A program made the translations under genes and the position numbers. A stretch of DNA of 64,000 nucleotides from Candidatus Brocadiia bacterium (GTDB lineage Bacteria > Planctomycetota > Brocadiia > SM23-32), in contig JBKHIT010000002.1 of the NCBI GenBank assembly GCA_046538485.1, positions 59,608 to 123,607 of the forward strand. Direction: 5' to 3'. Of the stretch, positions 5,026 to 52,535 are shown piece after piece (position 1 is the stretch's first letter; each line of letters starts with the position of its first letter). The notes below the pieces were generated by a model, which saw nothing but the letters and a program-made list of their open reading frames with translations, had not been told where the DNA came from and did not search any database.

Positions 5026-7503
5026 CTAGTTTTCTGCCAGCCACATTATAAGCAAACCAGCGCAGCCGTAGAGGACAGCTCCGAGTAACATCACGTTTGT
5101 CAGACCCGTCCCGGTGGCAAGCAATACCCCGATAGGCGGACCTGCAACCGAAGCAAATCCGTTGACTGCCCATGCCCACGGGATGTACTCCGGTCGTCTC
5201 GCACGCAGGCACGCTATTCCGCTCGGGAAAAAACATCCCATTAGCGTTGCCAGGGGAGCGATTAAGACGATTGCAGTGGTTAAGCGTGCGAGAACAGGCC
5301 ATCCGGCAGCAAAGGCAAAAATTGGCCCCAGGGTCAGTACGAGTCCTATGCTCATAAAAATGATTGCCGCGGAGGCTGACATGACCGTGTGAGGTGGGGC
5401 AAGCGGACTTCGCCCGCTCAGCCAGCTTCCCAAACCGGTAAAAAAAAGGAAAATACTCAAAACCAAACCGGCCGACAATATCGGGTCCCCGAGAAAATGC
5501 GTAAAGCGAATGATCAGGGTCATCTCAAGCACCATGAAGGTTATTCCAAGGGTCAGAAAATAGAGCAGCGTTGGAATCCGGAAACCGGAAGGAAATTTGA
5601 TCTGACGGGAAATAAGCAGCGGCAAAACAATCAATATCCCGCCGACCACGATGACTTCTATCAGAACTGCTACAACAGCGACGTAGCCAGGTTCGGAACG
5701 TCTGAACCAGCTTCGACTGTAAACCCGACGAAACTTCGAGATGCTCTCCCAGCGGAAGAAATTATGGAAATAGGGGCGGTCGTCGGTAGGGACTTCAACG
5801 TTATAAATGTAGTCGCTTAGAAATTGTGCCCGATCGGCCGAGAAAATCTTTCTGGCGGCGTGATGAAGATAGGAATAGGATTTGCCCGGGGGGCCGGGCA
5901 CCCGGGCGTATTGCTGGGCGGAGTCGCCCCCGTCGATCGGTAACCAGGGGGTGTCCAGCTGGAGTTCCGCAGCGGTTTGTTTCAGTCGGGCGTATCTATT
6001 GGCCCCAAAGGGTTTTCGTGAGACGAGGGTGCAAACGGCCAGATAGTTCCGGAGCTGGACGATATGTTGCGCGGGATGACTGCAGCCCCCGGCTTCCAGA
6101 GCCGAGACAAAGGTATTCAGAAGTTTGATGTTTCCACGCGGGGGAGATTGTTTTTGTCGTGTGACGGAAATAACCCCCTCGGGAGACAAATGTTTCAAAC
6201 AAAGTTGGAAACTTTCCCGGGTGAGCAAGAAATCTTCGTGAACGGACAAAAGCCCAGCTACACCTGCGGTCATCCCTTCAGCCCCCGCCAGCTGGATAAT
6301 ATCATAGGTCCGGTCTGTCTGCTCGAGAAAAAGCCGCGGATCGCGCGTAATGACCTCAACGTTTTGCTGCTGAAAGACATGGCCCATAGGTTCCGCAAGC
6401 GACCCATACCACATTTCTACCAGCTGCGGGTTGCGCTGGACCACGGTTATCCGAGAGGCGTCCCAGCGTTTTGCGAGCCACACATTTGTCCCGTCAGTTT
6501 CACCAAGTAACAGCACCCGGGGCTTCTCGATCAGGCGGTGCGCCACGCTCATCGGCGTGTGATCGAGTAACGGGGCCTGAGACGCTTTTCTAATCTTTAG
6601 AGAAACTCCCCATGGAGAAGCATCACGATACAATCGCAGTTGAGGCGTGTCTCGTTCCGGAGCGGGAGCTGTCCACCCGGCGAAAAGGGTAAAAGGCGAT
6701 GTCGTTGTTTCATAGATATCGATGCGTGCGCGTGGGCCAGGGCGGGTAGCGATGTGCTTCGCGTCGGACTGTTTCTCCCACCGACGCGCGGTTGCCAACC
6801 CTTTGTAAGTATCGATTCGCAAATTGAGCCTTTGGACGACCGGCATACACACGATTGCGGTCCCGGCAAGGAGAGGCCACAGAACCGGCCAGAGTGCGGA
6901 ATCGGTCTGTTTGAGGTCATGGAATCTCCACAGCACGGCAGCCAGAAGTGCCAGAAGAGAGACGACGTAGATGAGCTTGACTTCCGGCATCAGGAACATT
7001 ATGGGAAGAATCAAAAGCCCACCGGCGCCGCTCCCGAAGAGGTTGGCCGCATAAACGAGATGTACTTTCTCTTTGAGGTGGGTCAATGAAAGACCGATGA
7101 CTATGCCGCCGATGAAAAAGGGCAGACTGAGAGCAACGTGGTAGAGCATCAGAAATCCCGCCTGTTCCCAGCTGTAGAGGACATACCGGACATCAAGCGG
7201 CAGTGCCTGGATGGTGTGGAAAGAGAGTGGGACTGCAACGGCAAGAGCAGATGTCAATGCCGTACACCACGTGGCAAAACGGCGTTCAAGTCGGTGTCCG
7301 ATGAAGGTAAGCAGTGTTCCGCTGGCCCCGAAGCCGATGAGTGATGTGCTGATTACGAGGTAGGCAAAATGATGGAACGTTGCGACCGATAGACACCGCA
7401 TCAGGACCAATTCGAGGGCGATGACCGCGCTTGAGATGAGAAAAACAGCGGCAGCTGCCGGCAAAATCCCCGTTATTCCGCTCTCGGATATCTTTTTTTG
7501 CAC
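5026..7503 (-). CDS. Polytopic membrane protein with an embedded spermidine-synthase-like (class I methyltransferase fold) domain
   Basis: 825 aa. Many transmembrane helices at both ends flank a central VLLLGETDGTNVW...IIQLAGAEGMTAGVAGLLSVHEDFLLTRESFQLCLKHLSPEGVISV, which resembles the spermidine-synthase / PABS fold. Its start lies 4 bp from the pcm stop, so the two form an operon. Confidence 0.6.
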   Translation of the reverse strand: MQKKISESGITGILPAAAAVFLISSAVIALELVLMRCLSVATFHHFAYLVISTSLIGFGASGTLLTFIGHRLERRFATWCTALTSALAVAVPLSFHTIQALPLDVRYVLYSWEQAGFLMLYHVALSLPFFIGGIVIGLSLTHLKEKVHLVYAANLFGSGAGGLLILPIMFLMPEVKLIYVVSLLALLAAVLWRFHDLKQTDSALWPVLWPLLAGTAIVCMPVVQRLNLRIDTYKGLATARRWEKQSDAKHIATRPGPRARIDIYETTTSPFTLFAGWTAPAPERDTPQLRLYRDASPWGVSLKIRKASQAPLLDHTPMSVAHRLIEKPRVLLLGETDGTNVWLAKRWDASRITVVQRNPQLVEMWYGSLAEPMGHVFQQQNVEVITRDPRLFLEQTDRTYDIIQLAGAEGMTAGVAGLLSVHEDFLLTRESFQLCLKHLSPEGVISVTRQKQSPPRGNIKLLNTFVSALEAGGCSHPAQHIVQLRNYLAVCTLVSRKPFGANRYARLKQTAAELQLDTPWLPIDGGDSAQQYARVPGPPGKSYSYLHHAARKIFSADRAQFLSDYIYNVEVPTDDRPYFHNFFRWESISKFRRVYSRSWFRRSEPGYVAVVAVLIEVIVVGGILIVLPLLISRQIKFPSGFRIPTLLYFLTLGITFMVLEMTLIIRFTHFLGDPILSAGLVLSIFLFFTGLGSWLSGRSPLAPPHTVMSASAAIIFMSIGLVLTLGPIFAFAAGWPVLARLTTAIVLIAPLATLMGCFFPSGIACLRARRPEYIPWAWAVNGFASVAGPPIGVLLATGTGLTNVMLLGAVLYGCAGLLIMWLAEN

Positions 7504-7507
7504 GCGT

Positions 7508-8473
7508 TCACCGGCCTTCTTGTGCTCGACCCGTCATTGGCACGAAACGAACGGCCATCAATTCCTGCGACCGTATTCGCCCTTCGGCGTTCTTCCGAAC
7601 TTTTATGAGCGACTGAGTTTCATAGACGCTGCCAACCGGGATTACCATGTGTCCGCCGGGGGCGAGTTGTTTGAGCAACGGGGGAGGTATATGGCCAGCG
7701 CTGCACGTCACGATAATGGCATCAAACGGTGCATGTTCTTCCCAGGCAAAATACCCGTCTCCCTGTTTTGACTTCACATTTCGGTATCCCAAACGCTTGA
7801 GCCTTTTACTTGCTTGCACGGCCAGCTCTTTGATGATTTCGATGGTATAAACTTTAGACGTAATTTCGGCGAGAACAGCCGCTTGATATCCGCTTCCCGT
7901 CCCTATTTCGAGGACTTTTTCGCCAGGTTCAAGCTCAAGCTGCTCTGTCATGTAGGCGACGATATACGGCTGGGAGATGGTCTGGCCATGTCCTATCGGC
8001 AGGGGGCTATCGCCGTAGGCGTTGCCTGACATCCCCTCTGAAACAAAAGCATGCCGCGGGACTCGACGCATTGCCTGCAGCACTGTTTTGTCAGTAACCC
8101 CACGGCTTTCGATTTGCTCAGTGACCATGCGGCGGCGCTCGTCGGTGCGCTCGCTGAAGGCGGGGGGAGTTTCCGCGGATTTTTGATCGGTTTCCCTTTT
8201 TCCCTGCTGGGGACCGGGCTGGTCGAGGGGAGCCTCAGAAACCGGTGGTTGTTTGACGGGGCGGTTGCGGCTCTGTTCCGGGGGGTTGGGCGGTCGCCCG
8301 GAAGGTTGTCCCAGAGCTAACCAGAGAATGCCGACAATCAGAAAAGTCGCTACCACTGCAGCCACAGCTAACAGTAACAGTCTGGCCGGTTTGGTCGGAG
8401 TTTCGTTCACCGTTTGCGCTCCGTAATCCCGGTAAAAATGGGTTGCCCGTTCCGCGACCCGCCACATGTCCAT
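7508..8473 (-). CDS. pcm: Protein-L-isoaspartate O-methyltransferase with an N-terminal transmembrane anchor and a Pro-rich linker
   Basis: The C-terminal ~210 aa read VTDKTVLQAMRRVPRHAFV...GHGQTISQPYIVAYMTEQLELEPGEKVLEIGTGSGYQAAVLAEI...FDAIIVTCSAGHIPPPLLKQLAPGGHMVIPVG, a canonical PIMT. The N-terminus carries a transmembrane helix LLLLAVAAVVATFLIVGILWLAL and a P/Q-rich linker. The start is taken at MDMWRV (8473); the ORF could extend to 8608. Confidence 0.8.
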   Translation of the reverse strand: MDMWRVAERATHFYRDYGAQTVNETPTKPARLLLLAVAAVVATFLIVGILWLALGQPSGRPPNPPEQSRNRPVKQPPVSEAPLDQPGPQQGKRETDQKSAETPPAFSERTDERRRMVTEQIESRGVTDKTVLQAMRRVPRHAFVSEGMSGNAYGDSPLPIGHGQTISQPYIVAYMTEQLELEPGEKVLEIGTGSGYQAAVLAEITSKVYTIEIIKELAVQASKRLKRLGYRNVKSKQGDGYFAWEEHAPFDAIIVTCSAGHIPPPLLKQLAPGGHMVIPVGSVYETQSLIKVRKNAEGRIRSQELMAVRFVPMTGRAQEGR

Positions 8474-8930
8474 GATAAACGTGGGGAAAGAGGGTTGCAA
8501 GGTTGTCGTAATATAAACCTCATCTTTTGGTGTCAATGATTCTGTCGGCTTGCAACCCGGCTTTTCGCCCGCGCATCCTGCAGGCTCCAGTCCAGCTGAG
8601 CCCGCCACTCAGCGGGCGAAGCGTGACTTGAGGCGGACAAATGCCGGGAAATGGGCCACCAGGGGACGGGATAAAAGGGTATATAGGCGGCAGAAAAAGT
8701 TCTGGCCTCGGCCGCCCTGTGCTGGTGGGGGCAACGGAGGTGTGGCGGTTCGGCTGACAGACGCATGTAGCACAGGCTCTCCAGCGTGTGGACCGGGTCG
8801 TCAGACCCGGAGTCGTTGTCGTTTGTTACGGAACGGAATATTTGGCGTGGCGGACAATCGTATCAGCACCGGTTTGTGCATGAACCCCGCCGGCACATCC
8901 GGCTACGGAGTGCGGCGACCGCGAGTCGCG

Positions 8931-9168
8931 GTGGACTACCTGGAAAGGGGTATACCAATGCCAGTGATATTTAAAAATGGCAGGCACCTCTGCCCAACGA
9001 ATCCCCCACAGGGGGCGCCGCTGTGCCGTTGTCTTTCGTCGTTTTGTGGTGGACTACCTGGAAGCGGGATGCCAATCCAATGATATTTCAAAATGGCAGC
9101 CACGTCTGCCCCCAACGAATCCCCCCACAGGGGCCACCGCTTTGCCGTTTGTCTTCCGTCGTTTTGTG
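8931..9168. repeat. Tandem direct repeat, 2 copies of ~119 bp (8931-9048 and 9049-9168), roughly 85% identical
   Basis: Both units begin GTGGACTACCTGGAA[A/G]GGG...ATGCCA...TGATATTT[A/C]AAAATGGCAG[G/C]CAC[C/G]TCTGCCC...AACGAATCCCCC..ACAGGGG.C.CCGCT.TGCCGTT.GTCTT.CGTCGTTTTGTGG. They sit in a ~1.2 kb gene-free interval. Confidence 0.8.
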
Positions 9169-9407
9169 GCGGGCCTTCAGCCCACTTTTTTCCCAATGCA
9201 CACCTGTACCCCAGGGCTCCGAGGGCTTTCAGCCGTCTGCACCACGGGCTATTATATACTGCCCTTTCAGGGCATGAGACGGCAGGGCGCGCTCGGCGAT
9301 CACGCCCTGCATGTATGCGGCATCCCGGATACGTGAGGGCCCGGTGGGTTCTGGGAAATGTTCCGGGGCGGTGAACTGTTGCTATCCGGGAAAATGCTAA
9401 AGAACTG

Positions 9408-9452
9408 TAGGTCCGCATCGCCGAGGCGGAGCTGCCGTTGGTTGTTTTGCTA
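9408..9452. repeat. Copy A of a ~45 bp intergenic motif also present at 41308-41352
   Basis: Copy A is gtAGGTCCGCATCGcCGAGGCGGagctGCCGttGGTtGTtttGC and copy B is gcAGGTCCGCATCGaCGAGGCGGgcccGCCGgtGGTcGTgtGC. They share a 23-nt near-identical core followed by a similar GCCG..GGT.GT..GC tail. Confidence 0.6.
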
Positions 9453-9708
9453 TTTTGCTCCGAGACCTGCAGGTTTGTGCACCGCGTGCTGAACTCCAGC
9501 CTCCGGCTGAAGTCCAGTCCGCTCGCGGGTCCGGGCCCGCTTGCAAATCCGCCGGGGTTGTTTGGACGGAAAGCGCGAACCCCTTGTCCTTTCCGTCGCT
9601 TTGGTCCCTTACGTCCGTTTTTTTACGGGCTTCCCGGAAGCAAGGCACAGTTGAGTTATGGGAGAGATTTCCTATAATCATTTCAAACTGCTCAAAGGAG
9701 GTCTGAAG

Positions 9709-10902
9709 ATGCCAGTGCCAAAACCAACTGATATCTGCCTCAGCATTCGGAGTGTTCGCTTTAACGTTCCCGATTCGGACCCAAAATCGTGGGCTGCGGC
9801 GCGTGGCATCATCAAAAAAGTCTCTCCCACCCGAATCGAGTGGTCGTATGTCCGTGATCGGGACAAAATTGATTTTATGAAAGATCGGGCGAATGTATTT
9901 GTATCGTCACTCAATACCATTTCGCCGCCGGGACATGCATTGGATTTTGACGCGCAGCCCTGTATAGCCCCCTGGATGCGGAAATTCGGATCGCCGGGGG
10001 ATCGAAAACCATACATCTGCATGAACAATCCCACGGATTTAGAAAACCGATGTCGGCGCTCAGAAGAACTGATATCCGACGGGGTAACTGACACATTTCA
10101 ATTTGACGACTGGTACGGTAACGCGCAGATGTTCGGTTGGCCGCGGACCCCTTACACACCGACGGCATGTTTCTGCAGCCATTGCATGCGGGAATTCGGA
10201 CGCTACCTCGGACTCGATATAAACTATCGTGAATATCTTGTTGGTCGGGGCATCCGAAGCCGGAAACAGCTGTTTGCGATGGCTGAGCAAGGCGAGGTGC
10301 CCCTTTGGGATGATTTCAAACGGTTTGCCGAACAATCTGTCTACGACTACCTCCGGCGCCTGCGTCAGACGATGGCCCGTCATTTGGGGGAAGAACCGAC
10401 CCTGTCTGTCAACGCGACTGTGAATTTCGATCGGATTGATCTTATCAAAGGTCTGGTCGACTATTTGCACGGCGAGACGCGGAATTTCTCTCCTCAAAAT
10501 CTCTATCGCATGGCAGCGCTGAGTCGCGAGAAAAACCTTCCCCAGGTCGTTTCAATGTTTCCCGATGTGCCGGCCCGTGAATATCACAGCGACGAATTCG
10601 TGGCACGAATTCGCAGGGCGATCGCCGTCTGTTACGCGCTTGAAATGGTTCCGCTCTTCCCCTGGGACGTTTATGCGGGGGATCAGCCGCGCTGGTACGG
10701 ACGCTGGGAAGAATACCGTGACCCTTACCAGAAAGTGCGCGAATCCCCTCATTGGTTGAAAGACTACAGGTGGACCAGGTTAGAGCAGAAAGAGGGGAAA
10801 GTGATAATTTTTGCCGAGCTGACGGATAATTCGCCCATCGGCATTAAACACATAATAGAAGAAGATGGAACATGGGAGATCGAAGAAGTAATGTCGGACT
10901 GA
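9709..10902 (+). CDS. Hypothetical protein
   Basis: The start is placed at MPVPKPTD (ATG 9709), preceded by AAGGAGG 7 nt upstream. It has no recognisable family and contains a CFCSHC motif. Codon usage is consistent with its neighbours. Confidence 0.5.
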   Translation: MPVPKPTDICLSIRSVRFNVPDSDPKSWAAARGIIKKVSPTRIEWSYVRDRDKIDFMKDRANVFVSSLNTISPPGHALDFDAQPCIAPWMRKFGSPGDRKPYICMNNPTDLENRCRRSEELISDGVTDTFQFDDWYGNAQMFGWPRTPYTPTACFCSHCMREFGRYLGLDINYREYLVGRGIRSRKQLFAMAEQGEVPLWDDFKRFAEQSVYDYLRRLRQTMARHLGEEPTLSVNATVNFDRIDLIKGLVDYLHGETRNFSPQNLYRMAALSREKNLPQVVSMFPDVPAREYHSDEFVARIRRAIAVCYALEMVPLFPWDVYAGDQPRWYGRWEEYRDPYQKVRESPHWLKDYRWTRLEQKEGKVIIFAELTDNSPIGIKHIIEEDGTWEIEEVMSD

Positions 10903-27506: not shown

Positions 27507-28340
27507 ATGCGAGGTAAAAATAGCCATTACTCTGTCTTTCTTCGGTTGCTGACAATGTTGGCTGTAATCAGTCTCGTGACGGTGTCACGTAGCTTACGTG
27601 CCTCCTGGGCGGAACGTGCCGGGAAAATGAATAGAACGAAGCTTTCGGAACAAGAGGCACGGGCGAAGAGCGAGAAGGGCCAGCAGGAACGCAGAAACAA
27701 GCTGGCTATGCGTCGGATCAACCCCTCAATGGAAGGTGTTGACTGGAATGCTGACCCTACCGCAATCCCTTATATGCTCTACCAGGTGAACAAACGAACC
27801 GATCTGCCTGTTTACGTCGATAATGACGGCCTCAAGGTGGCTACTGATGAGCTGTTCGAGTTTACCATCGTTTATCTTACCTCTCACACCCGCTGGTCGT
27901 TCAATGAAAAGGAAACGGCCAATATGCAACGGTTTTTGCGTCGTGGTGGGACATTGTTGCTGGATGATTGTTATAACCGGGGAAGTGCATTTACCGATAG
28001 CGTTCGGCCGGAGGTGGCAAAGATGATCCCCGGTGCGGAACCGACAATGCTTTTGAAAGACGATTCCCGCGTGGAAGATGTATTCCGGATGGTGTATGAA
28101 ACACCGTGGCCGGGGGAAGCAGGTCGGTTTCCCAACAAACCTTGGCAGTATTTTCTGCTGGACGGGCGTCCGGCGGTATTTTTCAGCCCCAATGACGATG
28201 GTTGCGGCTGGGAAGTTTCAACTCCCCCGACGGCTTCAAACCCTATCGGTGAGGGAATCGGGCATGGAGGAGATAACCGACAACGAGAACTTATGTATCA
28301 GTGGGCAACAAACTGGATGCTTTATGCTTACACACACTGA
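27507..28340 (+). CDS. DUF4159-like protein (typical terminal gene of planctomycete MoxR operons)
   Basis: It has an N-terminal signal or anchor LLTMLAVISLVTV. FTIVYLTSHTRWSFNEKETANMQRFLRRGGTLLLDDCYN suggests a GATase1-like fold. It directly abuts the upstream gene (TAAATG). The family assignment is from memory of the architecture, not from a search. Confidence 0.5.
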   Translation: MRGKNSHYSVFLRLLTMLAVISLVTVSRSLRASWAERAGKMNRTKLSEQEARAKSEKGQQERRNKLAMRRINPSMEGVDWNADPTAIPYMLYQVNKRTDLPVYVDNDGLKVATDELFEFTIVYLTSHTRWSFNEKETANMQRFLRRGGTLLLDDCYNRGSAFTDSVRPEVAKMIPGAEPTMLLKDDSRVEDVFRMVYETPWPGEAGRFPNKPWQYFLLDGRPAVFFSPNDDGCGWEVSTPPTASNPIGEGIGHGGDNRQRELMYQWATNWMLYAYTH

Positions 28341-28366
28341 TAATTGCCTTTGGCGGACGAACAATA

Positions 28367-31300
28367 ATGAAAACAGATAAATTATTTCTGCGGGGCCGCT
28401 GGGCTGCGATTTTGTTGTGCATTCTTTGCCTGGCTCTGGTGGGAGAAGTGTCTGCTGACGAAACCGTGGAGTTGCGGCTTGTGCCTTACGACCGGCCCGA
28501 TGTTACGGTGGATGAACTCGACGAAGAACGACCGATCGTTAATCCAGTGTCAACCGCTCAGGGCGTTGAGATGAGACAAGTTGGGGTAGCGGTTACCTGT
28601 TGGGCACGGAATGTGCGGCTCGATGGCCAATCTGTTTTTGAACGCTACCACGGTAGGAAGTACGTGGGACGAGTTCCGGTCGTCAAAAAGAAGCTCGAAC
28701 CCGGCAAACATACAATCTGGCCGGGCGAACATACCTTTACGGTAACGGATGAAGGCGAGCTTCAATCCGGGAGCCCCGCTCTGGAGATCGAGGAGAACGT
28801 TGTTCGGATCAAATGTTATCCGGTGACGATTGAAGCGTATCAGTCTTCGGGCCCAGGCTTATCGGGGACAATGCGACAGCAGGCACTGCCGGAGATGACG
28901 CTTCGTGAGGCAGAAGATGCCTGGAGCGCGGCAGAAGATAACAAAAAGAAACCCCGGGAGTTGTTGCCTGTTTTTGAGGATTTTGCACCGCTCCGAATCT
29001 GGCTGCCACCGAATACAGCGGGTGCTGGCTATTTGCTCCATCCGGTCGGGCTCACGTTTCAGCTGGATGCCGATGGGGTGAAGGTTGGATCGGGTGAGAA
29101 AGGGAGAAAAGTTGACGGTATTAAAACGGCGAAAAATAAAATTCGCGTACCGCTGAGAGTTCATCCAGTGCGTGGTGATCAGGGAAGTGCGCTCGTGGTT
29201 CTCGGTGTGCATAAAATGGAATGGGAACGGGAAAGTGGCCTCAAAGAGGCGCGATGGTATCCGCGGCACCAGCCATACGAGGTTCAAATTGCTGAAGAAG
29301 CGCCGACAATTGAAATTGAGGGACATTTGCAGACACTGCCAATAAAAATGATGAGAGTGCGAATTGTCGACCAGCTGAGCGGGGCCCAGCAGCTGCTTGT
29401 TGCGGAGATGGAGTCACCTCACCTGATCACTCAGCAGCAATTTGTAAGCCGTATCCGGGGTGTCGATGCTCGCGGGAGCAAGCTGGACGATAAGGTTGTT
29501 TTCGGGGAAGTGCGAAGGTATGGCGAAAATGAATGGAATAAGCTCGGATTGAAAGGCCATGGCCAGGGGGAGGCGAAATTTTTTGTGCCGGAACTTCCAA
29601 CGGGCCTTTACGAATTGCGGATCGGTTTCGAAGTGGCCGAAAACGACCGTTTCGGCGTAAAAAGATGGGTGACCATCGGGCCAGAGGAGCCACGTCCGGG
29701 AGTTGGCACGTTTACTCAAAAGGGGCGAAATGCTTTCTACCGAGGAGAAGAATTCTGGATTGGTCTTGGTGTAAGAACTCCCGGGGAGCAGATTCCCTCC
29801 GGCCAGCGCATCGAGTTGAAATTGGAGGACGAAAATGGGCGGGAACTCTCGGTCTATGTTGGGAAGACCAAGGCACCAATTGAAGAACGAAAAACCTATG
29901 TGGTTCGGGTTGGCGGGGAGATGAGTTTAAAACTGGCGCCGGGGAAATACCGACTCGCAGCCAAACTGGGATCTTACAGTTCCCCGGGGCGTGATATTTC
30001 GATTGTCGAACCTGATCCGCAGACGCATTTCACGACTATGCTCAATGGAAAATATAACGTCATCGGCAAACAGTATGAGAAAGTTCTCAAGACGTGTGAA
30101 GGCGCAGAGTTTCTGGCCCGGGAAATAAAGGAGGCCGGATATAACACGTTCATGGGAATGAGCTACAGCTTGCAGCGTCATAACCGTAAAAATACGGCAA
30201 TCGAGCAGCTTGTGCGTGAACGACCGTCTCTGGGCCCGTGGGAAAGTTATTATCAACCCAGCGGACGCGACCGGTTTATGAACGCGGCGGTTCGCAATAA
30301 CTTGAGATTTTACGAGAATATCTTCAGTCATCACGACAGCATGTTACCACGGCATAAGGCTTTTCTCGCGGCCGCCGAACGATATGCGAGCCTCGAATTA
30401 GAGTCTATGCGGCACAGCCCCGTTTTTCGGGGAGTCTGTTTGTATGATGAGTTTTATCATTCGGGGGGAGTTCATACGGCAGCGATAAAGGATATGTTTC
30501 TGAAAGCCCAGCAGATGGGTTTCAGGGAACGTTATGATGGTTTGACTGTGGCGGAAGCCAAGAAAGCGCTCGATCGGTTTGTCAGACGACCGCCTGGGCG
30601 TCGGCGGACGGAAGATGTGGAGAAGTACCGGCTCTGGAAAGAGCATGAGGACTGGCAATGGGAACGATTTTCCCGACGTATGAACGGAGCGATCAAAGAT
30701 GTGATGCCGTCCGCTCGGACCTTTGCTCTCCAGAGATTCGGGGGTAGTAACGGGTCAAATATCGCGCACAATGGCCCTTCGGAGAAGGTTTTTGGACCGC
30801 TGGATATCGCATCCTGTGTTATGTACAAGGACGGAGGGTTTGGGGACCGGCCGGTATTCGCCCCAATGCAGGCGGATGTACTCAGCATTCGTAAAAATAT
30901 CCCCGTCTGGACGCAACTTCATTGTTTTCACGGTCCCGGGATTTACGGGCGGCATCTTCTCCGGCAGGCGTTCTTTGCACTTTCGCAAAAAGTCGAAGGG
31001 TTCAGTTTCTTTACGATCGGGTTCGATCCAGAGAACCCCCGACAACTTGATAACAGGGATACGATTCGCACGATTGCCGCTGAACTTTGCAGGCCCTACG
31101 GTGATTTCTTCATGGCTTGCGAGAAGGGCTACAAAAAGGTTGGTATTTATTACTCGCGGACGGCGGCGCACCTGAGACAAAGAAAATCTCTAAAATTGAG
31201 TTACGCATGCGAAGGGCTCTGGGTTGGGTGTATGCGGGCTGGATATCCCGCCGACTTCCTCTACGATACCGATATAATTGAGGGCCGGGGAATGGAATAC

Positions 31301-34300
31301 GATGTGGTCTTCGCACCGGGATGGGAATTGGTGGGCGAATGTCCTCCCAGTATACAAAAAGCTCTTAAACGCCTTGTTAATGCCGGCAAAATCGTCGCGA
31401 CCGAGCGGTCGAGTAAACTTCCCGTAAAGGGGATTTCAAGGCTTCAATCATCGCTTGATGAATACGACGATAAGCTCGGTGGCGCTTTCCCGCGATATGT
31501 GGATTTTGAGACGGAGATGGTGTGGAACCGGAGTGAGAAAACGACGCAACTGGTGGGAGATTTCCTTTCAAAACACATCGAACCGGCGGGGTTGGTCCAA
31601 AAGGCTGAAGGGACCGAGGAACTCCCGGTCCACGTGGGGCCGGACTGGCTGAAATGCGGGCGGGGACAATACATGATTATACCCAATTTTGCTTATACGC
31701 GGTTTGATGGGCTTCATAAAACGCTCTATCAGGCGCCCGACCGGCCGACCGTGAAATTTCCCGAGAAGAATCCGAAATGCTACGATATGCTCGAGATGCG
31801 ATCTGTGGAAGTTGAAAGGAAAGATGACTGGATGATTGTCCGGCCGGACTTCCGGTACTACCCGGGGAAGATATACGCTTTCCTCCCGCGTGAAATCGGT
31901 GGCGTGAGTCTGAAGGCCAGTTCCGAGGTTAAGGCGGGAGAAACCATCCAATACCAGGCACGAGTGACGGACGACGCTGGCCACACAATCAATGCCGGTT
32001 TCCCTATTGAAATTAAGCTGGAGCACCCTCTTGGCAGGACGCTCTACGATGTTTACCGGGTAGCTAAACCTGTGTATTCCGGTGCTTATGCAATGCCGGT
32101 CAATATTACACCCGGCAACTGGACCCTGAGCGTTCGGGAATTAATCGGCGGCGCGATTGCGAAGACGAAAATCAAGGTGGGGCGAGGGGCGTTGCCCCTC
32201 GGCCAATACGATGGGACAACCGTGTTTGTGCATGATGTCGCCCAAATCCGCAGGTTTTTGAAAAATAACGAAAAAGTAATCATTGCGCGTTCGGAATCTC
32301 AGCAATGGTTAGTGCCGGCCGCTCGAGAACTATCCGCAGGACTGAAAAAGATGGGCATTGAGGCGGAGATCAAGAACATTGACGGGATCGTGCGCACTGC
32401 TGGAGACTGGAACCGCAAAAATCCAACAGCGGACGGGACAAGGATGTGGCGTGGAACAGTAGTCGCCCCTGGACTGTTTGTCGATGCTCCTGTGATCGTG
32501 CTGGGACGGCGTTACGAAAATCGGCTTGTGGAGGCTTTGATCGGTAGAGGAACAGTGCCGGAGCCTCTGACGGAAAACTTCCCGGGGCAAGGCCGTGCTG
32601 TCGTCGGACACGTGCGGCGGGCGTTTTCCAATGAGTACGACACCTTGTACATATTCTCACGAGACAAAACCGGAATAAAACGAGGAATCGAGAAATTGAT
32701 CTCGGCGGAAGCGGATGTGTCAGCGCCCGTGCATCCGGAACTTGTTGAACCGAAAGTTCGGTCCGATGCGAAACTCGCTGATCAAGCCAGACGGGACTGG
32801 GCACCTTCAAGTTACCGACAGAATATCTGGGGTGAAGATCTGATTCGAACGATAGATGTCGATCCGGTATCCGGTCGAATCCTGGTCGGGACATTTGGGT
32901 ACGGTTACAACCTGTTCTGCCTGTCGGAGAAGGGAGATCTGTTGTGGCGCAAATTTCTGCCTGAACATGATGTTTACTATGCCCGATGGTATGACCAGGG
33001 TATCAGGGAGATTGAGAAAGAAGAGGAAGAGGAGACGATAGGGGCGTGGGAAAATGCGAAAGAAATCAGGCCGGACGAAGGATACGAAGAAGAACCAGAA
33101 GAGGGTCAGGGGGAAGAAGTGAAAAAGGGCGCCCGGCGTGTCGTAGCGGCGACGGGCCGCGGTTTCCATGTCTTTTTGCTCAACGGTGAAAATGGTGACG
33201 TGATCAAAAAATTTGCATCGACCGAGTGGCCGAATTACCACAGTACTTACACCGAAGGAGCATTGAAGACTGAAGTGCCGATTAGAGTGAACACACCTCT
33301 GAAACAGATATTGGTATGCGGGAAGACGGCTATGGTAGCACTGGATTATGAAGGGAACAAAATATGGTCGCTCGATAGGGCGGATGCGATCACCGAATAC
33401 CCTGAGAAAGCTGAACAAACCGGAGCGGCCACTTTTCCACGGTCAGCGGTCATGCGAGGGTTTGCGATCAGCCCCGATGGATCGAAGATTATTCATAGCC
33501 AGTATCGGATCACCGGATCTACGGAGACAGCAAAAGAAATAGTCGATGTTTGGGGCCACCTGCCGCACGTAATCGATGCCAGAACGGGGAAAATTCTGGC
33601 GGTTAACCGGTCGAACCGGGGTGAAAGTACACGTGCTTGCGGATGGTCTGTAGGGTGGCCGGAAAATTCGAAACGGCCATGGGTGTATCGAAAAGGATTG
33701 GGAGCTCCTCTCCAAGAAGACGGAAGTTTTGGCGAATTTAAGCTGGTTCGTGGAAAAAGACTCGAAAATGGCGATTGGCTGCAGCATACAAATACGCGAC
33801 TGGCAAGAGTTGCTGCGAATGGGAATGTGGTGTGGGAGAAGGACTCGGAGGAAGTCTGGATTCGACAACTGGACCGGCTCAGTAAGGATCAGACGAAGAT
33901 TTATCGTTGCGATCCCGACGGGCTGATTAAATGCTATGATCTTGAAAACGGAGAAACTCTTTGGGAATACGGCGGCTTGGATTACAGCGCGGTTTTCCGG
34001 CCGACCCAAAAGAGTCTGCTGGCTGGGGCGGAAGACGGTGACCTGGTATTTCTGGATTCAGCGGGAAAGGCGAAGTGGGAAACAACAATTCGTGACGACA
34101 ACCGTGTTCCCGCTGGAGGATACCCCGGCGAAATTGAATATGCTGAACAGAGGGACCCCGATAGTACGGCTGAATTTTATCCGGTTGGTGAAGATAAACC
34201 GGGAGACTATAAGACCCTTCTTCGGAAAGGCCTGGAGCAAATCTCTGGGGGTGGTTTTGAAGCCGGTACCCATTGGGAAATTAAAGATGGCAAAATCGAA

Positions 34301-36394
34301 TCTGGTGGGGAGGCTCACCGAGGCAAGAAATGTTTGTCCCTTGAGCAAGGGGATCTTGTCAGCCAGGCTATCGAGCGAAAAGTGGTACCGTCGGCTACTT
34401 ACCTGCTGGAATTTTTCTACAAAATCAATAATTTAAAAGCGCGGCTGACGGCTGGCGTGATGCTTGAGGGCAAGGGCAAGATCAGCGATGAAGTCCTTAC
34501 TGCCTCGAAATTTGGGGCGGTGACGGGGGCGCGAGCCGGGCAGTGGAGCTTCGGGCGGCTCGCCGTGAAAAGCATGGCCGATACCGTGAAAATACGGGTC
34601 GGGTTTGAGGCGGAAGATGGAGTGGTTTTGGTCGATGATGTGAGTTTGAAACCGATTCGATTCCCGTCGGCCAATCTGGTGGCATGCGAAGAACTCCACG
34701 CGATTGAGCCCACGTATGTGGAAGATATTCGAGTCCAGTATGATCGCGTTTCAGGGGCACTCAAGAATAAGTTGCGCAATAAGAATCGGGTCGCTGCGTT
34801 TGCCCAATGTGATCCGAATGTGGCAATCATCTGGACGCAGGAAGAAAGCTATTTGCACAATGGTCGGCTGGACGACATCGGTCAGATATGGCGCTATCAA
34901 CCGGACAACGTGGGATTCAGCGTTATTTTTGCAGAACCTATGTACGTTTCCCATCTTGTGCTCTATCTGAACAATGCGACGCCTGGTAATGTTTATCAAA
35001 CCATCGGCGTGCTGGCGAACAATATAGAGACGAAAATGCCAGAAACGGTGGCACTTGTGCGAGGGAATCGTCGTCGGTTCGTAGTAGTTCATTTCGACGA
35101 ACCTGTCTACACCGATAATCTGAAAATATTGCCGGGACCGCACCGAGCTCATAAAGAGTGTATCACCGAAGTGGAAGTCTACGGTCCGCTCGGGGGCCCG
35201 GAAATGGCGGAGAAAAGCGATGGATTTTCGGAGGCAGCGCCGGCCCATTCGATGTTCATGGGATCGCCGGATCATGCTCCGAAACAACTTCCAGAACCCC
35301 TGACCGGCGAGTATAAAGAAGTAGCGAGATCGAGTCGCATTGGTACCCCGGCTTACCATTGTGGAGGCTCCGTTGCGAGCGGACTCTTTACGTTCGGTGT
35401 GGCAGATGGGAGGGTCCGCTCCGTGAAAATCAGTCGATCGGAGAGACGACATAACAGACCAGATTGGGGTCGGTCATGGTCTCTCAGCAGCGTGGCTCCA
35501 ACAACCGCACCCGCACGATATAGAGGACGCCTTCTGGTCGGATCGGCGGATTATAAACTGCATGCGGTCGCTGATAATGGCATGCATCTGTGGGGTTTTG
35601 AGACGGACGGGAGAGTGTACTCAGCTCCAACTCCGAACGGACATGAAGTATATTTTGGCTCGGATGATGGGAATCTGTACAAAGCGGATATCGATTCCGG
35701 GATGTTGATATGGCGGTTTGAAACCGGTGGAAAAGTGCGAAGCTCTCCTGCATTGTCCGACGGAAAACTTTATTTCGCTTCCTGGGATGGGAACCTTTAC
35801 GCTCTGGATGCGGCGAAAGGACGGAAGGTTTGGCAGGCTGCAATAGAGAAGTTCACACGTTGCAGTCCGGCGGTTCGAAGTGGAAAAGTTTACATTGGTG
35901 ATGAACGAGGTCATATGGTCTGCTACAGCGCTAAAAACGGCAAATTGTTGTGGAGAAAGCCGCTGGGAGACCATATTTCGAGGTGTCCGGTTGTGCTGGG
36001 AGATAGTGTGGTATATGCGAGCGAAGACGGCAAAATCGCGGCAATAATGCCGTCGGGATCCGTCCGTTGGAGGCGTGATCTGAAGACGCGTATCAGTGGC
36101 CAGCCCATTCCCACGCGGGAACAGCTTATCGTGCCCACTGACAATGGACTTTCTGTATTGAAATCGGACGATGGGAAGGACGATGAAAGGTTTGTCCCGC
36201 CTCGTAAGGCGGGTAAAATTCATACCGCCTTACCCTATAAAGGTTTCTTGTGTCTGCTGAGTGGTCGCCCATCCGTTTATAAGGCTGGCGGAAGGAACTT
36301 TGTGAATTATGGTGGCACTGTGGAGATCTGGGCTCCAAGAGAGGAACCTGAGACGTCGGAGACACCGGAAAAGGGCACGGGAGGTTCGAAATGA
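28367..36394 (+). CDS. Giant secreted multidomain protein (~2675 aa) with PQQ-like beta-propellers and CBM-like / discoidin-like (galactose-binding-like) modules
   Basis: The start MKTDKLFLRGRWAAILLCILCLALVGEVSA is a signal peptide with ATG at 28367. PQQ-type repeats occur near 32880-32960 (LVGTFGYGYNLFCLSEKGDLLWRKF) and 35500-36100 (GRLLVGSADYKLHAVADNGMHLWGFETDGRVYSAP... repeated about 6 times). A CBM-like module lies near 34200-34670 (FEAGTHWEIKDGK...VDDVSLKPI) and a discoidin-like module near 34880-35180. An acidic tract EKEEEEETIG...EEEPEEGQGEE lies near 33010-33120. One uninterrupted ORF. Confidence 0.7.
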   Translation: MKTDKLFLRGRWAAILLCILCLALVGEVSADETVELRLVPYDRPDVTVDELDEERPIVNPVSTAQGVEMRQVGVAVTCWARNVRLDGQSVFERYHGRKYVGRVPVVKKKLEPGKHTIWPGEHTFTVTDEGELQSGSPALEIEENVVRIKCYPVTIEAYQSSGPGLSGTMRQQALPEMTLREAEDAWSAAEDNKKKPRELLPVFEDFAPLRIWLPPNTAGAGYLLHPVGLTFQLDADGVKVGSGEKGRKVDGIKTAKNKIRVPLRVHPVRGDQGSALVVLGVHKMEWERESGLKEARWYPRHQPYEVQIAEEAPTIEIEGHLQTLPIKMMRVRIVDQLSGAQQLLVAEMESPHLITQQQFVSRIRGVDARGSKLDDKVVFGEVRRYGENEWNKLGLKGHGQGEAKFFVPELPTGLYELRIGFEVAENDRFGVKRWVTIGPEEPRPGVGTFTQKGRNAFYRGEEFWIGLGVRTPGEQIPSGQRIELKLEDENGRELSVYVGKTKAPIEERKTYVVRVGGEMSLKLAPGKYRLAAKLGSYSSPGRDISIVEPDPQTHFTTMLNGKYNVIGKQYEKVLKTCEGAEFLAREIKEAGYNTFMGMSYSLQRHNRKNTAIEQLVRERPSLGPWESYYQPSGRDRFMNAAVRNNLRFYENIFSHHDSMLPRHKAFLAAAERYASLELESMRHSPVFRGVCLYDEFYHSGGVHTAAIKDMFLKAQQMGFRERYDGLTVAEAKKALDRFVRRPPGRRRTEDVEKYRLWKEHEDWQWERFSRRMNGAIKDVMPSARTFALQRFGGSNGSNIAHNGPSEKVFGPLDIASCVMYKDGGFGDRPVFAPMQADVLSIRKNIPVWTQLHCFHGPGIYGRHLLRQAFFALSQKVEGFSFFTIGFDPENPRQLDNRDTIRTIAAELCRPYGDFFMACEKGYKKVGIYYSRTAAHLRQRKSLKLSYACEGLWVGCMRAGYPADFLYDTDIIEGRGMEYDVVFAPGWELVGECPPSIQKALKRLVNAGKIVATERSSKLPVKGISRLQSSLDEYDDKLGGAFPRYVDFETEMVWNRSEKTTQLVGDFLSKHIEPAGLVQKAEGTEELPVHVGPDWLKCGRGQYMIIPNFAYTRFDGLHKTLYQAPDRPTVKFPEKNPKCYDMLEMRSVEVERKDDWMIVRPDFRYYPGKIYAFLPREIGGVSLKASSEVKAGETIQYQARVTDDAGHTINAGFPIEIKLEHPLGRTLYDVYRVAKPVYSGAYAMPVNITPGNWTLSVRELIGGAIAKTKIKVGRGALPLGQYDGTTVFVHDVAQIRRFLKNNEKVIIARSESQQWLVPAARELSAGLKKMGIEAEIKNIDGIVRTAGDWNRKNPTADGTRMWRGTVVAPGLFVDAPVIVLGRRYENRLVEALIGRGTVPEPLTENFPGQGRAVVGHVRRAFSNEYDTLYIFSRDKTGIKRGIEKLISAEADVSAPVHPELVEPKVRSDAKLADQARRDWAPSSYRQNIWGEDLIRTIDVDPVSGRILVGTFGYGYNLFCLSEKGDLLWRKFLPEHDVYYARWYDQGIREIEKEEEEETIGAWENAKEIRPDEGYEEEPEEGQGEEVKKGARRVVAATGRGFHVFLLNGENGDVIKKFASTEWPNYHSTYTEGALKTEVPIRVNTPLKQILVCGKTAMVALDYEGNKIWSLDRADAITEYPEKAEQTGAATFPRSAVMRGFAISPDGSKIIHSQYRITGSTETAKEIVDVWGHLPHVIDARTGKILAVNRSNRGESTRACGWSVGWPENSKRPWVYRKGLGAPLQEDGSFGEFKLVRGKRLENGDWLQHTNTRLARVAANGNVVWEKDSEEVWIRQLDRLSKDQTKIYRCDPDGLIKCYDLENGETLWEYGGLDYSAVFRPTQKSLLAGAEDGDLVFLDSAGKAKWETTIRDDNRVPAGGYPGEIEYAEQRDPDSTAEFYPVGEDKPGDYKTLLRKGLEQISGGGFEAGTHWEIKDGKIESGGEAHRGKKCLSLEQGDLVSQAIERKVVPSATYLLEFFYKINNLKARLTAGVMLEGKGKISDEVLTASKFGAVTGARAGQWSFGRLAVKSMADTVKIRVGFEAEDGVVLVDDVSLKPIRFPSANLVACEELHAIEPTYVEDIRVQYDRVSGALKNKLRNKNRVAAFAQCDPNVAIIWTQEESYLHNGRLDDIGQIWRYQPDNVGFSVIFAEPMYVSHLVLYLNNATPGNVYQTIGVLANNIETKMPETVALVRGNRRRFVVVHFDEPVYTDNLKILPGPHRAHKECITEVEVYGPLGGPEMAEKSDGFSEAAPAHSMFMGSPDHAPKQLPEPLTGEYKEVARSSRIGTPAYHCGGSVASGLFTFGVADGRVRSVKISRSERRHNRPDWGRSWSLSSVAPTTAPARYRGRLLVGSADYKLHAVADNGMHLWGFETDGRVYSAPTPNGHEVYFGSDDGNLYKADIDSGMLIWRFETGGKVRSSPALSDGKLYFASWDGNLYALDAAKGRKVWQAAIEKFTRCSPAVRSGKVYIGDERGHMVCYSAKNGKLLWRKPLGDHISRCPVVLGDSVVYASEDGKIAAIMPSGSVRWRRDLKTRISGQPIPTREQLIVPTDNGLSVLKSDDGKDDERFVPPRKAGKIHTALPYKGFLCLLSGRPSVYKAGGRNFVNYGGTVEIWAPREEPETSETPEKGTGGSK

Positions 36395-39300
36395 AAAGAG
36401 TTTTAGGCACCACAATAACGCTGTGGATCGCGGCATTGGTGTTTTTGTCGTTGAACTGTGCCGTCGCGGCCCAGCCCCATAATATCGTTGAAAACTTCAC
36501 CGCGAGGCTCAATTCAAGCGACCAAATACACTCTTCGGTTGTGACCACGGATCCCTGGCGCGGGGTTGGCCATGCGCATTTGACCTACAAGGCCGAAGGG
36601 CGCCATCGAAGGGCCAGCTTGTTTTTACCGGATGAAAAATACCGAGTTCCAGGACCGGGAACCGTAAAAATGTGGGTTAAGGGAGATGGGTCAGGTAATA
36701 ATCTGCGAATCTGCGTGCGACATGCCAGAGTTCAACATGATCGGCATGGACGTCGTCGCCTGCAACACCATGAAGACATCTGGTCCAGGCAGGTCAAGCT
36801 CGATTTCGCAGGATGGAAACGCCTGAGTTTCGATATGAGCGAAATTCCCGATGACCGGTCGGCATGGTGGCGGTGCCTTGAGATCACAGTTCCGCGTGGG
36901 CAAGAAGCGAAAATGAGCGGTAAACTTGCTCTTGATGAATTTGTTCAGATTCCCAAAAAGTCGAGGCCAAAGGGGGCTGTGGCTGTAACACTGATCGGGC
37001 CGCGGATACGCAATTTCAGCCGCAAAATCGCTGTCTCACTGGATGTCAGGAATTTCACCCGGAAAAGCCAGGAAATCAAAGCTCGAGTGGTGGCCACTGA
37101 CCGAAATGAGAATCTGGTTCTGGATCGGGACTTTACTATCAAGGCCGAACCGTTCGCGAGAATAAGCGCCGATGAAAACAAGACTTCTGAACACCATCTT
37201 GAACTTGTGCCCGATCAAATCGCACGGTTTCTTCCACCTTTCAAAGTCCAGTGCGATGTCGGTTCCGAACTAACCGATCTTTCGGTCAGCCGTAGTTTCA
37301 AAGTGGTGATGGGCAATAGTATTTATCTGTTTGATGACCTTTCAGATGTTTACGGGCGCTGGTTTACCGCGGGCGGCGGGGATTTGAAAAGTATGCGGCA
37401 TTGGCCGAAATGGATAATGGGAGAGCAGCAGAGATATTCCCCGTTCTACCAGACGTCGGCCAGGCTGACACGTGTGCCGGTCGAGCACAAACCAACCGGC
37501 AAATTACTTGCCGAACGATACCTCGGAAAGTATGCCATGAAATTCGACTATCGGGGCAACGCGGCGGTTTATATGACCCGCCGGCGTTATCTGCCCGGGA
37601 ATGCCTACCGGATGGGGGTCTGGGTAAAAGGCGACGGCAACGGTGCTGAATTGTGGGCTCGTTTTCTCGATTACACAGACAATGCAGATTTTTGGCCCGG
37701 TGGGTGGCAACGAATTGGGCGCGGTGGGCGAGTGGTCTGTAAACTCGATTTTACCGATTGGAGATATTTCGAGTTAGAGTTGCCAGGTGGAGGTATCGGA
37801 CGCAACACGCCGCGTGGTTCAACGGATGCGCTGGATTTTCCCCTTGAACTGACCGCTTTCCGCATCGAACCGGGGAAAGAAAAGAGTTCCGGGTCCGTTC
37901 AAATTGGAGCCATTCACGTTCATACCCAGCAACCACAACGAAAAACTCTGGCCGTGCAAGTAGGGTATGAAGATGCGGAAAGACGTTGGTGGTCGGAAGG
38001 CGATGCATGGGCTGCAGTGCAAAACAGCTGGCCGGGAGGCGGGCGGAAGGTAAGAGTGACCTGGAACCTGCTGGACCGAAAAAATGAAGAAATTGCATCG
38101 GGACAAAAAGAGCTCGGACTTAATCCAGTAGCGACGGCAAATGTTGAGATACCTCTGTCAAAGTTCGCGGCGAAAATTGAGAAATGTCTCGCCCCTTTCC
38201 GCCTTCAAGTCGTTGCAACGGATACGGAAGACTTTTCTACTTCCACGACACGTGAATTGATTATCGCAAAACCGGATTCCTCGGCTTTAGTTGCCGATTT
38301 TGAGGCGGAACGGGGATACCTGGGAATGCTGCCGAGGGGCATGGAACGCAAGAAACCGGCCGGGGAATTCGTGGCCTGGACGAGCGCCAAAGTTTCGCAT
38401 GGGGGGCAAAGATCGCTGGCCATCAATTGGAAGAAAGAGGCCGGACTCCAGTTGCCTGTATCGGTCGATCCACCTTTGCCGGGCGTGCCCGTTGAGCTGA
38501 GTTTGTGGGTCCATGGGGATGGTAAAGGTGAGATAATGTATCCGTTGATCGGGGACAAACGCGGGGTCAGTCATGGCGCGCACGGTGGGCAATGGGATCT
38601 GTTTTTGCCACGCACAAGCGCGGGTAAATTTCAAAACGTGGTTAAGGTTGATTGGAAAGGATGGAAGAAGTTGACTTTCAATCTGCCGGTTATTCCCCCG
38701 ACATGGCAGGAAAAACTGCCGGTGCTGGGTTTTGAGGCCAGTTATCCGCTCGGTGTACATCTGATGGTGGACGGACGAGATGCATCGGCAGAAATGGGCA
38801 CGATATATGTCGATGATTTGCGTGCTGAAACACATCTCGCTCCTCAGCATCGAGTCAATATGCGGTTAAGGCCGATGGGGAGGACGAATGTCCTTCGTCC
38901 CGGCGAAGCGGCGCGCGTTTTGGTGACGAATCACGGGATGGCAGACGAGAGTAATGTAGAGATTGAAGGGGGTATTTATGATTGGCGGGGGCGAAAGCGG
39001 GTGGAAGTTGATGAAAAACGGGCTCTTAAACCGATGGCACATGTAGGGCTCGAATGCGGCGAAAAACTGCCGGTTGGTGCATACAAGATTGCACTGGATC
39101 TAAAACAAAATGCGAAGAAGTTGGAGCACCTCAGCAAGGATTTTCTGGTGGGGGATCTGTCAAAATATCTCGGTAGCGGTTGGGAAGAACAGATCGACGA
39201 TTCGCCGGCTTTGAAGCGGCCCCTGGGTGAAGATTTTGCCCGGATTGATGAAGACTGGGACTGGGTGGAACATTATCCCGGAAACGTGCAGCTGGATACG

Positions 39301-41277: not shown

Positions 41278-41307
41278 CCCGCATATGGGTCGGAGAATTT
41301 CAGAGAG

Positions 41308-41352
41308 GTGCAGGTCCGCATCGACGAGGCGGGCCCGCCGGTGGTCGTGTGC
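41308..41352. repeat. Copy B of the ~45 bp intergenic motif (see 9408-9452)
   Basis: gcAGGTCCGCATCGaCGAGGCGGgcccGCCGgtGGTcGTgtGC lies in the 560-bp convergent intergenic region after giant protein 2. It contains the 10-nt palindrome GCGGGCCCGC. Confidence 0.6.
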
Positions 41353-41841
41353 AGTTTGCGGGGAGATCTGACGGCTTTGGAGCTGCTTTCTGAGAAAGTT
41401 ACAAATGTGAATAGGTTTTACGTGCCTTCTCAGCGCACCGGCGCTGGCTCTGGAATGGGGTGAAGAGTTGGGCCGTGCCAAACGGGACACCAGTTTTCTT
41501 TTTTCCCGAACCTTTCGGTAAATTGTTCAATAGGGCATGATGAGCCACTTTCTGGCCAACAGTCTTCTTCATCTGCCGGGCAAGCCGGCACGGGCCGTGT
41601 TTATTGGATGAGGGGATTTAGATTATGAAATGGGAATGCCCTATGCGCACCGTCGTTACGCAAAAATCGATGCCGGGTATTTACTTGAAACTTTGCGGGG
41701 ATAGTTTTTGAGAGGTCTGTGCCGAAGGGGTCGTTAAACTCTACTGTTTTTCGCGAAGCTGGCGGGACCAAAAATAATAGACCGCAAATATGCGACGACG
41801 TGCGCGGGGGAAAAAGAGGAATTGTCCTTCCGTTCAAATAT

Positions 41842-52109: not shown

Positions 52110-52535
52110 CTATTTGACGTCGGTTCGGCTGCGATTTTCCGAGTTGCCTTCACTAAAGCCCGACCATCGTCGCGCGATATTGACATCTCCAAAAACAATG
52201 ACTACTTCAGGGGAATGGAGAACAACCATACCCTCGTAGAATTTCGCTATATCCCAGCCGCGATTATCCTCGTATGATACGACAATCCCGCAGCGCTGTC
52301 TCGTAGGTTCTTTTTGCAAAGTTTGCCTTCGTTCAAGGATTTTCGAGACATCCTTTTTGGTAATATGAGCAAGCGCCCCCGGTTCGATTTCCAGCAACTC
52401 TGAAACAGGTCGGTGTATACGGTCATCGATTGCGTGGTGAATTTCGTATTCGATGAAGTCTTCCCCTGTGACGGGAGACCGAGCGACCGCGTGAATCAGA
52501 TGCCCTGCGCCGAGCACTTCATATCCAATCGGCAT
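52110..52535 (-). CDS. Hypothetical cytoplasmic protein (~141 aa)
   Basis: The start MPIGYEVLGAGHL is preceded by AAGGAGG 6 nt upstream of the ATG at 52535. No recognisable family. It is divergent from the hydroxypyruvate-isomerase-like gene. Confidence 0.45.
   Translation of the reverse strand: MPIGYEVLGAGHLIHAVARSPVTGEDFIEYEIHHAIDDRIHRPVSELLEIEPGALAHITKKDVSKILERRQTLQKEPTRQRCGIVVSYEDNRGWDIAKFYEGMVVLHSPEVVIVFGDVNIARRWSGFSEGNSENRSRTDVK

Follow-up and report, generated by a model that had tools for sequence, protein, structure and literature searches.

Within a 64-kb stretch of DNA from Candidatus Brocadiia bacterium (contig JBKHIT010000002.1; the whole stretch is called the window below), the longest gene-free segment is an intergenic gap of 1298 nucleotides (nt) at 8411-9708. 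It is delimited by the NCBI start codons of pcm (GTG 8410, minus strand) and of a downstream gene for a hypothetical protein of 397/414 amino acids (aa) (ATG 9709, plus strand), and these two genes form a divergent pair around it. Two features of this gap are considered here: a tandem duplication of a segment of about 119 nt, which had drawn attention in a first-pass annotation, and a near-threshold match to the RNA family Acido-Lenti-1 (RF01687) beside it, which is the more informative feature of the two.

The gap contains no recognizable gene. The accessions of the pcm product and the downstream protein are consecutive in both metagenome-assembled genomes (MAGs) compared here, so NCBI annotates nothing between the two genes. 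The second of these genomes is an independently assembled sister MAG (GCA_018334735.1, contig JAGXLK010000034.1, hereafter L009) that is 98.0% identical to the window over 10.6 kb. The first-pass annotation had seen no credible open reading frame (ORF) between pcm and the next plus-strand gene, and this description holds: none of the 10 interval ORFs of at least 62 aa has a Pfam match, and no gene is called across the interval in the window or in L009. The two longest internal ORFs (160 and 119 aa) are on record in no assembly, and none of the small ORFs of the interval with a Shine-Dalgarno sequence is protein-like. The features at the centre of the gap are listed here, with the strand given where one was assigned.

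8931-9048: tandem repeat unit 1, 118 nt (TRF, blastn, shuffle test, global alignment)
8979-8994: GGCAG-N6-CTGCC inverted repeat of unit 1, about -8 kcal/mol, followed on the minus strand by AUUUUUAAAU
9049-9168: tandem repeat unit 2, 120 nt, 86.1% identical to unit 1 (TRF, blastn, global alignment)
9095-9110: GGCAG-N6-CTGCC inverted repeat of unit 2, with two loop differences, followed on the minus strand by AUUUUGAAAU
9171-9191, plus strand: intrinsic-terminator-like hairpin GGGC-CUUCA-GCCC, then T6 (9186-9191), -7.8 kcal/mol
9210-9274, plus strand: Acido-Lenti-1-like element (RF01687 match; the minimum-free-energy fold shows both hairpins)

Two tandem units in the centre of the gap

The two adjacent copies of about 119 bp, first described at about 85% identity, are confirmed at 86.1% over 8931-9048 and 9049-9168. 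In the global alignment 105 of 122 columns are identical, the remainder comprising 11 substitutions and six gap columns in five indels (+2, +1, +1, -1, -1), which fit no reading frame. The local alignment score of the units is 150, compared with 15.1 +/- 2.3 for dinucleotide shuffles, i.e., about 59 standard deviations above them. TRF reports a single array at 8961-9172 (period 116, 1.8 copies, 86% matches), and blastn aligns 8930-9052 with 9048-9172 at 85.8% identity (E 2e-28), the homology of unit 2 extending to about 9172 (GTGGCGG vs GTGGTGG). Since neither flank is similar to the unit (z < 3), the array holds exactly two copies; no additional degenerate copies were found on either side, and the segment after the array was rejected as a diverged third unit, as it lacks similarity to the unit and its hairpins are out of register.

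The arrangement is genuine and old, its copies now being 14% diverged, and its origin appears simple. The possibility of an assembly artefact, raised together with the original description, is removed by the sister MAG, which was assembled independently and carries the same two units base for base. All three unit junctions read GG(T/C)GG (hereafter GGYGG), a pattern regarded here as the signature of simple head-to-tail duplication at a short microhomology. This supports the earlier suggestion of a remnant of repeat-mediated rearrangement as far as the origin of the repeat is concerned, and such an origin says nothing about whether the duplicated product is functional. Most likely, the repeat is a by-product of duplication inside the locus, through slippage or unequal exchange at GGYGG. 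No further copy of the unit lies in the 64-kb window, exact-pattern scans for its hairpin core gave 0 matches in genome, metagenome and viral collections, and blastn of the whole interval gave 0 matches in plasmids and phages. Matches of 16-mers in viral contigs were discarded as homologues of the unit because no similarity extends beyond them.

The proposal that the duplicated element is structured and encodes one or two small RNAs fares less well. Of the two hairpins on which it drew, GGCAG-N6-CTGCC is present in both units, where it is followed on the minus strand by AUUUUU or AUUUUG, whereas CACAG-N9-CTGTG (9007-9025) exists in copy 1 only, G9023->T9142 breaking its middle pair in copy 2. 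The differences between the copies had been described as clustered in loops, which is true of four of the 11 substitutions, located in two loops; one lies in a stem, however, and the other six and all five indels lie outside the hairpins. Ten unchanged stem bases at 14% divergence would be expected about one time in five by our own estimate. No Rfam family matches the units at gathering level or even at E<=10, and a search for tRNA and tmRNA found none. Together with the broken second hairpin, the Rfam result and the folding and RNAalifold analyses given below leave this proposal unsupported for the units, which are probably not two independent structured RNA genes.

The Acido-Lenti-1-like element and its setting

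The best Rfam match of the whole window is that of Acido-Lenti-1 at 9210-9274, which begins 42 nt past the array. It scores 26.4 bits in the window (E 0.0016 in a 1.5-kb search, 0.068 over the whole window) and 35.7 bits in the sister strain (E 4.6e-6), the gathering score being 37. The score is higher in the sister strain because A9244C turns a G-A mismatch of the 5' stem into a G-C pair; this is the one change informative for stem pairing that the comparison of the two strains provides.

The element consists of a 5' hairpin (9210-9248), a 12-nt linker CUAUUAUAUACU (9249-9260) and a 3' hairpin (9261-9273). The 5' hairpin, CCCAGGG...CCACGGG, forms five of seven pairs in the window and, after A9244C, seven of the eight modelled pairs in L009. 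In the seeds, this hairpin has 7-8 bp, a short loop of 4-6 nt and a CC...GG closing (RF01687; PMC2864571). The AU-rich linker, which in the family begins CUA after the 5' stem, is preceded by GGG here and is in exact register with the RF01687 model, as is the 3' hairpin GCCCU-UUC-AGGGC, with its 5-bp stem and UUC loop. A partial match of 13.9 bits to model positions 24-45, i.e., the 3' hairpin, spans 9162-9183, lying 25 nt ahead of the full element, and corresponds to the terminator-like hairpin GGGC-CUUCA-GCCC; neighbouring units, tandem or partial, are a frequent trait of the seeds and not a strict requirement. The starts of the two 3' hairpins are separated by 90 nt; subtracting an insertion of 22-25 nt in the 5' hairpin leaves 65-68 nt, and this spacing, as judged from published coordinates and flanks, is close to the shortest published period.

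Acido-Lenti-1 was described from Acidobacteria and Lentisphaerae, with some occurrences close to group II introns (Weinberg et al. 2010, PMC2864571). The coordinates of the seeds place many of them in regular tandem arrays whose periods are 69-74, 110-115 and 192-200 nt, and in several a partial 'linker + 3' hairpin' precedes the 5' hairpin by 21-29 nt (PMC2864571, supplementary alignments); neither trait is mentioned in the one-line published description (PMC2864571). The present element shares with the family two hairpins joined by a 12-nt AU-rich linker starting (G)GCUA, the 5-bp UUC-loop 3' hairpin, an intergenic plus-strand position, and a half-unit 25 nt upstream of the full unit, as in several seeds. 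It differs in its sub-gathering score, the 5' insertion, the two mismatched pairs of the window strain, and the presence of one and a half units instead of a multi-copy array, the 119-nt units themselves lacking the motif. Since the gathering score is not reached, the element is not filed as a family member; it is a close variant of Acido-Lenti-1. The record NC_005027 we take to be that of Rhodopirellula baltica, a planctomycete. Two Acido-Lenti-1 seeds come from this record, and about 55 come from NZ_ABCK01 records (PMC2864571).

Comparison of the two strains places both the repeat and the element in a nearly invariant setting. Over seven flanking genes, synonymous divergence is 4.2% (range 2.1-6.6%; pcm 2.1%, downstream gene 4.5%) and non-synonymous divergence is 0.93%. 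The interval 8474-9657 shows 8 substitutions in 1184 nt (0.68%) plus one 12-bp indel; its central 846 nt (8680-9525) contain a single substitution, A9244C, and the 238-nt repeat none. Had these sites evolved at the pace of synonymous ones, the repeat should show 5-10 differences and the central 846 nt 18-36, according to our own Poisson estimate. The clean run at 8680-9243 (564 nt) is the longest in the 10.6-kb alignment. Such a near-invariant centre suggests constraint without proving it.

Short-read contigs from Logan break on both sides of this region, whereas both MAG assemblies span it. For the window strain, contig L002 ends at 8790 and contig L001 starts at 9505; the sister-strain contig L006 starts at 9498, which a k=31 branch caused by the 12-bp indel would explain. 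No difference between the MAGs matches the other two ends, at 8790 and 9505, which may reflect a structural variant, short repeated k-mers or a drop in coverage. A 714-bp presence/absence variant behind them was rejected, as the junction bases are off by one relative to a clean deletion.

Flanking genes, further elements and rejected classes

The remaining features of the gap are as follows.

8472-8500, minus strand: promoter-like site for pcm, TTGCAA-17-TATCAT (consensus scan)
9282-9310: inverted repeat CAGGGCG-N13-CGCCCTG (blastn self-match)
9389-9492, plus strand: dispersed repeat D1, second copy at 41292-41393
9526-9537: 12-bp strain indel, the only length difference in the intergenic interval (two-strain comparison)
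9651-9678, plus strand: promoter-like site of the downstream gene, TTGAGT-16-TATAAT, 10/12 (consensus scan)

The pcm product is a protein-L-isoaspartate O-methyltransferase with an N-terminal extension of about 110 aa, comprising a hydrophobic helix and a Pro-rich linker; only about 64-77% of the protein is spanned by most homologues and up to 94% by a few, and homologues outside the species are at most 70% identical and taxonomically scattered. Its start differs among gene callers, ATG 8473 vs GTG 8410 (7508-8473, minus strand), the NCBI call (P0037) beginning at V22 of the longer ORF. The product from GTG 8410 corresponds to MFP4026343.1 except for the initiator residue, and the promoter-like site at 8472-8500 fits this start better than ATG 8473. 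The downstream gene has a Shine-Dalgarno sequence AAGGAGG (9694-9700) and a promoter-like site about 30 nt before its ATG; read from ATG 9709, its protein matches MFP4026344.1 ('Candidatus Brocadiia bacterium') at 100% identity. Since each flanking gene has a promoter-like site of its own at its edge of the spacer, about 1.1 kb in the centre is extra DNA. A cis-regulatory leader of the downstream gene pair, another of the early suggestions, is unlikely in view of the promoter-like site in front of the downstream gene itself and of two terminator-like plus-strand hairpins (9171-9191 and 9425-9455) that stand between this gene and the repeat.

The two D1 copies lie 32 kb apart and align over 104 nt at 69% identity (E 4e-9). 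They share an exact core of 21 nt, AGGTCCGCATCG[C/A]CGAGGCGG. The copy at 41292-41393 starts 15 nt past the stop of a 1628-aa gene, and the interval copy includes the terminator-like hairpin with a T-rich tail at 9425-9455 (plus strand). A metagenome search with the core 21-mer returned at least 120 matches, all in unrelated GC-rich coding DNA (e.g., ...KVRIAEAA...) with dissimilar flanks. An interpretation of D1 as the N-terminus of a small protein was rejected, given that the ORFs across it have no Pfam match and that the 9.4-kb copy has an in-frame stop. The 12-bp strain indel removes a 5-bp GC hairpin, GCGGG-TCCGGG-CCCGC. Elsewhere in the window, two adjacent giant plus-strand ORFs of 2697 and 1628 aa occupy 28301-41277 in its middle, and a sub-threshold match to the S4-Bacteroidia ribosomal-protein leader (RF03139) was recorded at 52255-52287 on the minus strand (25.6 bits vs a gathering score of 34.7; window E 0.39).

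Several known classes were considered for the repeat and rejected. Diversity-generating retroelements are recognized by equal-length repeats whose differences are confined to template adenines and by a reverse transcriptase in the vicinity; here the copies differ by five indels and by changes that include G>C, C>G, G>T and T>C, and no reverse-transcriptase domain was found among the neighbouring genes listed with Pfam matches. A replication origin with iterons does not fit, as the interval has no DnaA box with at most one mismatch and the number of such boxes in the window as a whole is what chance would give; GC skew stays positive from one end of the window to the other, with no switch. Sigma-54 enhancers or promoters are not enriched (22 matches in the window vs 29 expected), and a CRISPR reading failed its test. 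The Rhodopirellula-1 motif, a hairpin with GGAUGAAC ... GUUAUCC at its base that is not in Rfam (Weinberg 2010), was also dismissed after a crude paired-word scan of 8474-9657 did not find this word pair.

Two broader classes offer partial parallels. Tandemly duplicated small-RNA genes or modules are a general class, exemplified by multi-copy small-RNA arrays. The present locus resembles them in its head-to-tail modules of about 120 nt, its position in a divergent intergenic region and the terminator-like hairpin after the array, but differs in having no promoter or terminator for each unit on the plus strand and no structure or covariation signal. Elements of the REP/BOX type are likewise short hairpin-bearing modules of long intergenic regions, and the D1 module is dispersed as they are; the 119-nt unit, by contrast, is not dispersed and occurs as two adjacent copies only in the data searched. 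A dispersed REP/BOX/MITE element was therefore rejected for the unit, as no further copies exist in the window or the collections scanned.

Readings of the centre and their implications

The reading favoured here, tentatively, is that the centre is an independent non-coding RNA locus with an Acido-Lenti-1-type element, whose upstream segment of 118-120 nt would have been duplicated long before the two strains split. Such a locus is plausible because of the near-threshold Acido-Lenti-1 match downstream of the repeat and the nearly invariant centre. It would be read on the plus strand; a transcript across the two duplicated modules would stop at the hairpin and T6 at 9171-9191, and the Acido-Lenti-1-type element would constitute either a second small RNA or a 3' module.

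Several observations weigh against this reading. The units fold no more stably than shuffled sequences (z -0.47 to +0.66, both strands), the same is true of sliding 120-nt windows over 8940-9219 (z -0.15 to +1.4), and RNAalifold on the two copies identifies no pair retained via changes on both sides. Three between-copy substitutions are G-U compatible on the minus strand only, a weak hint in itself; together with the minus-strand hairpin and U-run of each unit, they make transcription of the minus strand conceivable, and the consensus scan revealed no convincing promoter upstream of the repeat. The RF01687 match stays below 37 bits in both strains, and the 22-25-nt insertion of the 5' hairpin, itself a small hairpin, is present in no seed. 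As for the strain comparison, the flanking coding DNA likewise contains stretches of 543 and 447 nt free of differences and the whole block 6251-9750 is poor in them, so that the low divergence may reflect a recombination mosaic. The lineage is isolated: only two strains, near-identical, can be compared, and homologues of the downstream protein outside the species reach at most 63% identity, none of them syntenic.

A more ambitious version, in which the central ~850 nt (about 8680-9525) would be a lineage-specific constrained multi-module non-coding RNA locus with modules of about 119 nt fused to the insertion-bearing Acido-Lenti-1-type element, is rather unlikely. If it were true, the Acido-Lenti-1 elements of Planctomycetota and Lentisphaerota would be pieces of longer modular RNAs or of arrays growing by tandem duplication.

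Among the alternatives, the one that survives best is a neutral spacer, in which the repeat is a functionless product of slippage or unequal exchange in dispensable DNA, the Acido-Lenti-1 match is due to chance or to an inconsequential repeat, and the strains are alike here because of a recent recombination tract or sweep. This would account for the 11 substitutions and five indels between the copies, with length changes that fit no frame or helix register, for units that have neither a structure signal nor a homologue in the collections scanned, and for divergence that is patchy along the 10.6-kb alignment, with long clean runs in coding DNA too. However, compared with synonymous sites, differences are reduced 6-fold over the interval as a whole and about 30-fold in its central 846 nt, seven of the eight substitutions are confined to the outer 29% (binomial p about 0.001, our own calculation), and the single central change restores a predicted base pair, all of which makes a neutral spacer somewhat unlikely.

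Protein-binding regulatory DNA, with the two GGCAG-N6-CTGCC palindromes serving as operator or enhancer sites of a dimeric regulator for one or both divergent promoters, would suit the position between divergent genes. The palindromes lie 116 bp apart, about 11 helical turns, their perfect 5+5 arms were kept while the spacer between the arms changed, and the pattern occurs three times in the window vs 0.06 expected. Nevertheless, about 480 and 540-650 bp separate them from the two promoter-like sites, the gene lists show no adjacent regulator gene, and no sigma-54-type promoter is nearby, the lone interval match (9059-9074, minus strand, two mismatches) having CC in place of the conserved GC; a regulatory role of this kind is quite unlikely. 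Similarly small is the probability of repetitive extragenic or mobile-element debris (REP/BOX/MITE-like), in which the centre is a mosaic of repeat families. Such debris would explain the short-read contig breaks on both sides (stops at 8790, restarts at 9505 or 9498) and would agree with the recurrence of D1 at 41292-41393 and with the multi-copy, arrayed nature of Acido-Lenti-1 in other genomes, yet the sequences searched contain the 119-nt unit nowhere else, no terminal inverted repeats or target-site duplications are seen at 8790/9505 on reading the sequence, two MAG assemblies run straight through, and no transposase is nearby. An unannotated or decayed protein-coding gene or small ORF is very improbable: ORFs of 160-177 aa span the region and the strain indel of 12 bp is a multiple of three, but their translations are Arg/Pro/Gly-rich and of low complexity without a Pfam match, the unit indels disregard the frame, the ORFs are called by no gene caller on record, and no small ORF with a Shine-Dalgarno sequence resembles a protein.

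The independent non-coding RNA locus thus remains the tentative interpretation, and what it would mean depends on transcription of the centre. In either case no long-standing question is opened, and in practical terms the locus can guide metatranscriptome mapping. Without transcription, the centre represents an ordinary intergenic duplication. If it is transcribed, it would provide a new insertion-bearing representative of the orphan Acido-Lenti-1 class in an uncultured Planctomycetota lineage, and it would link Acido-Lenti-1 to an adjacent tandem duplication, which could help explain the arrays in which this class occurs.

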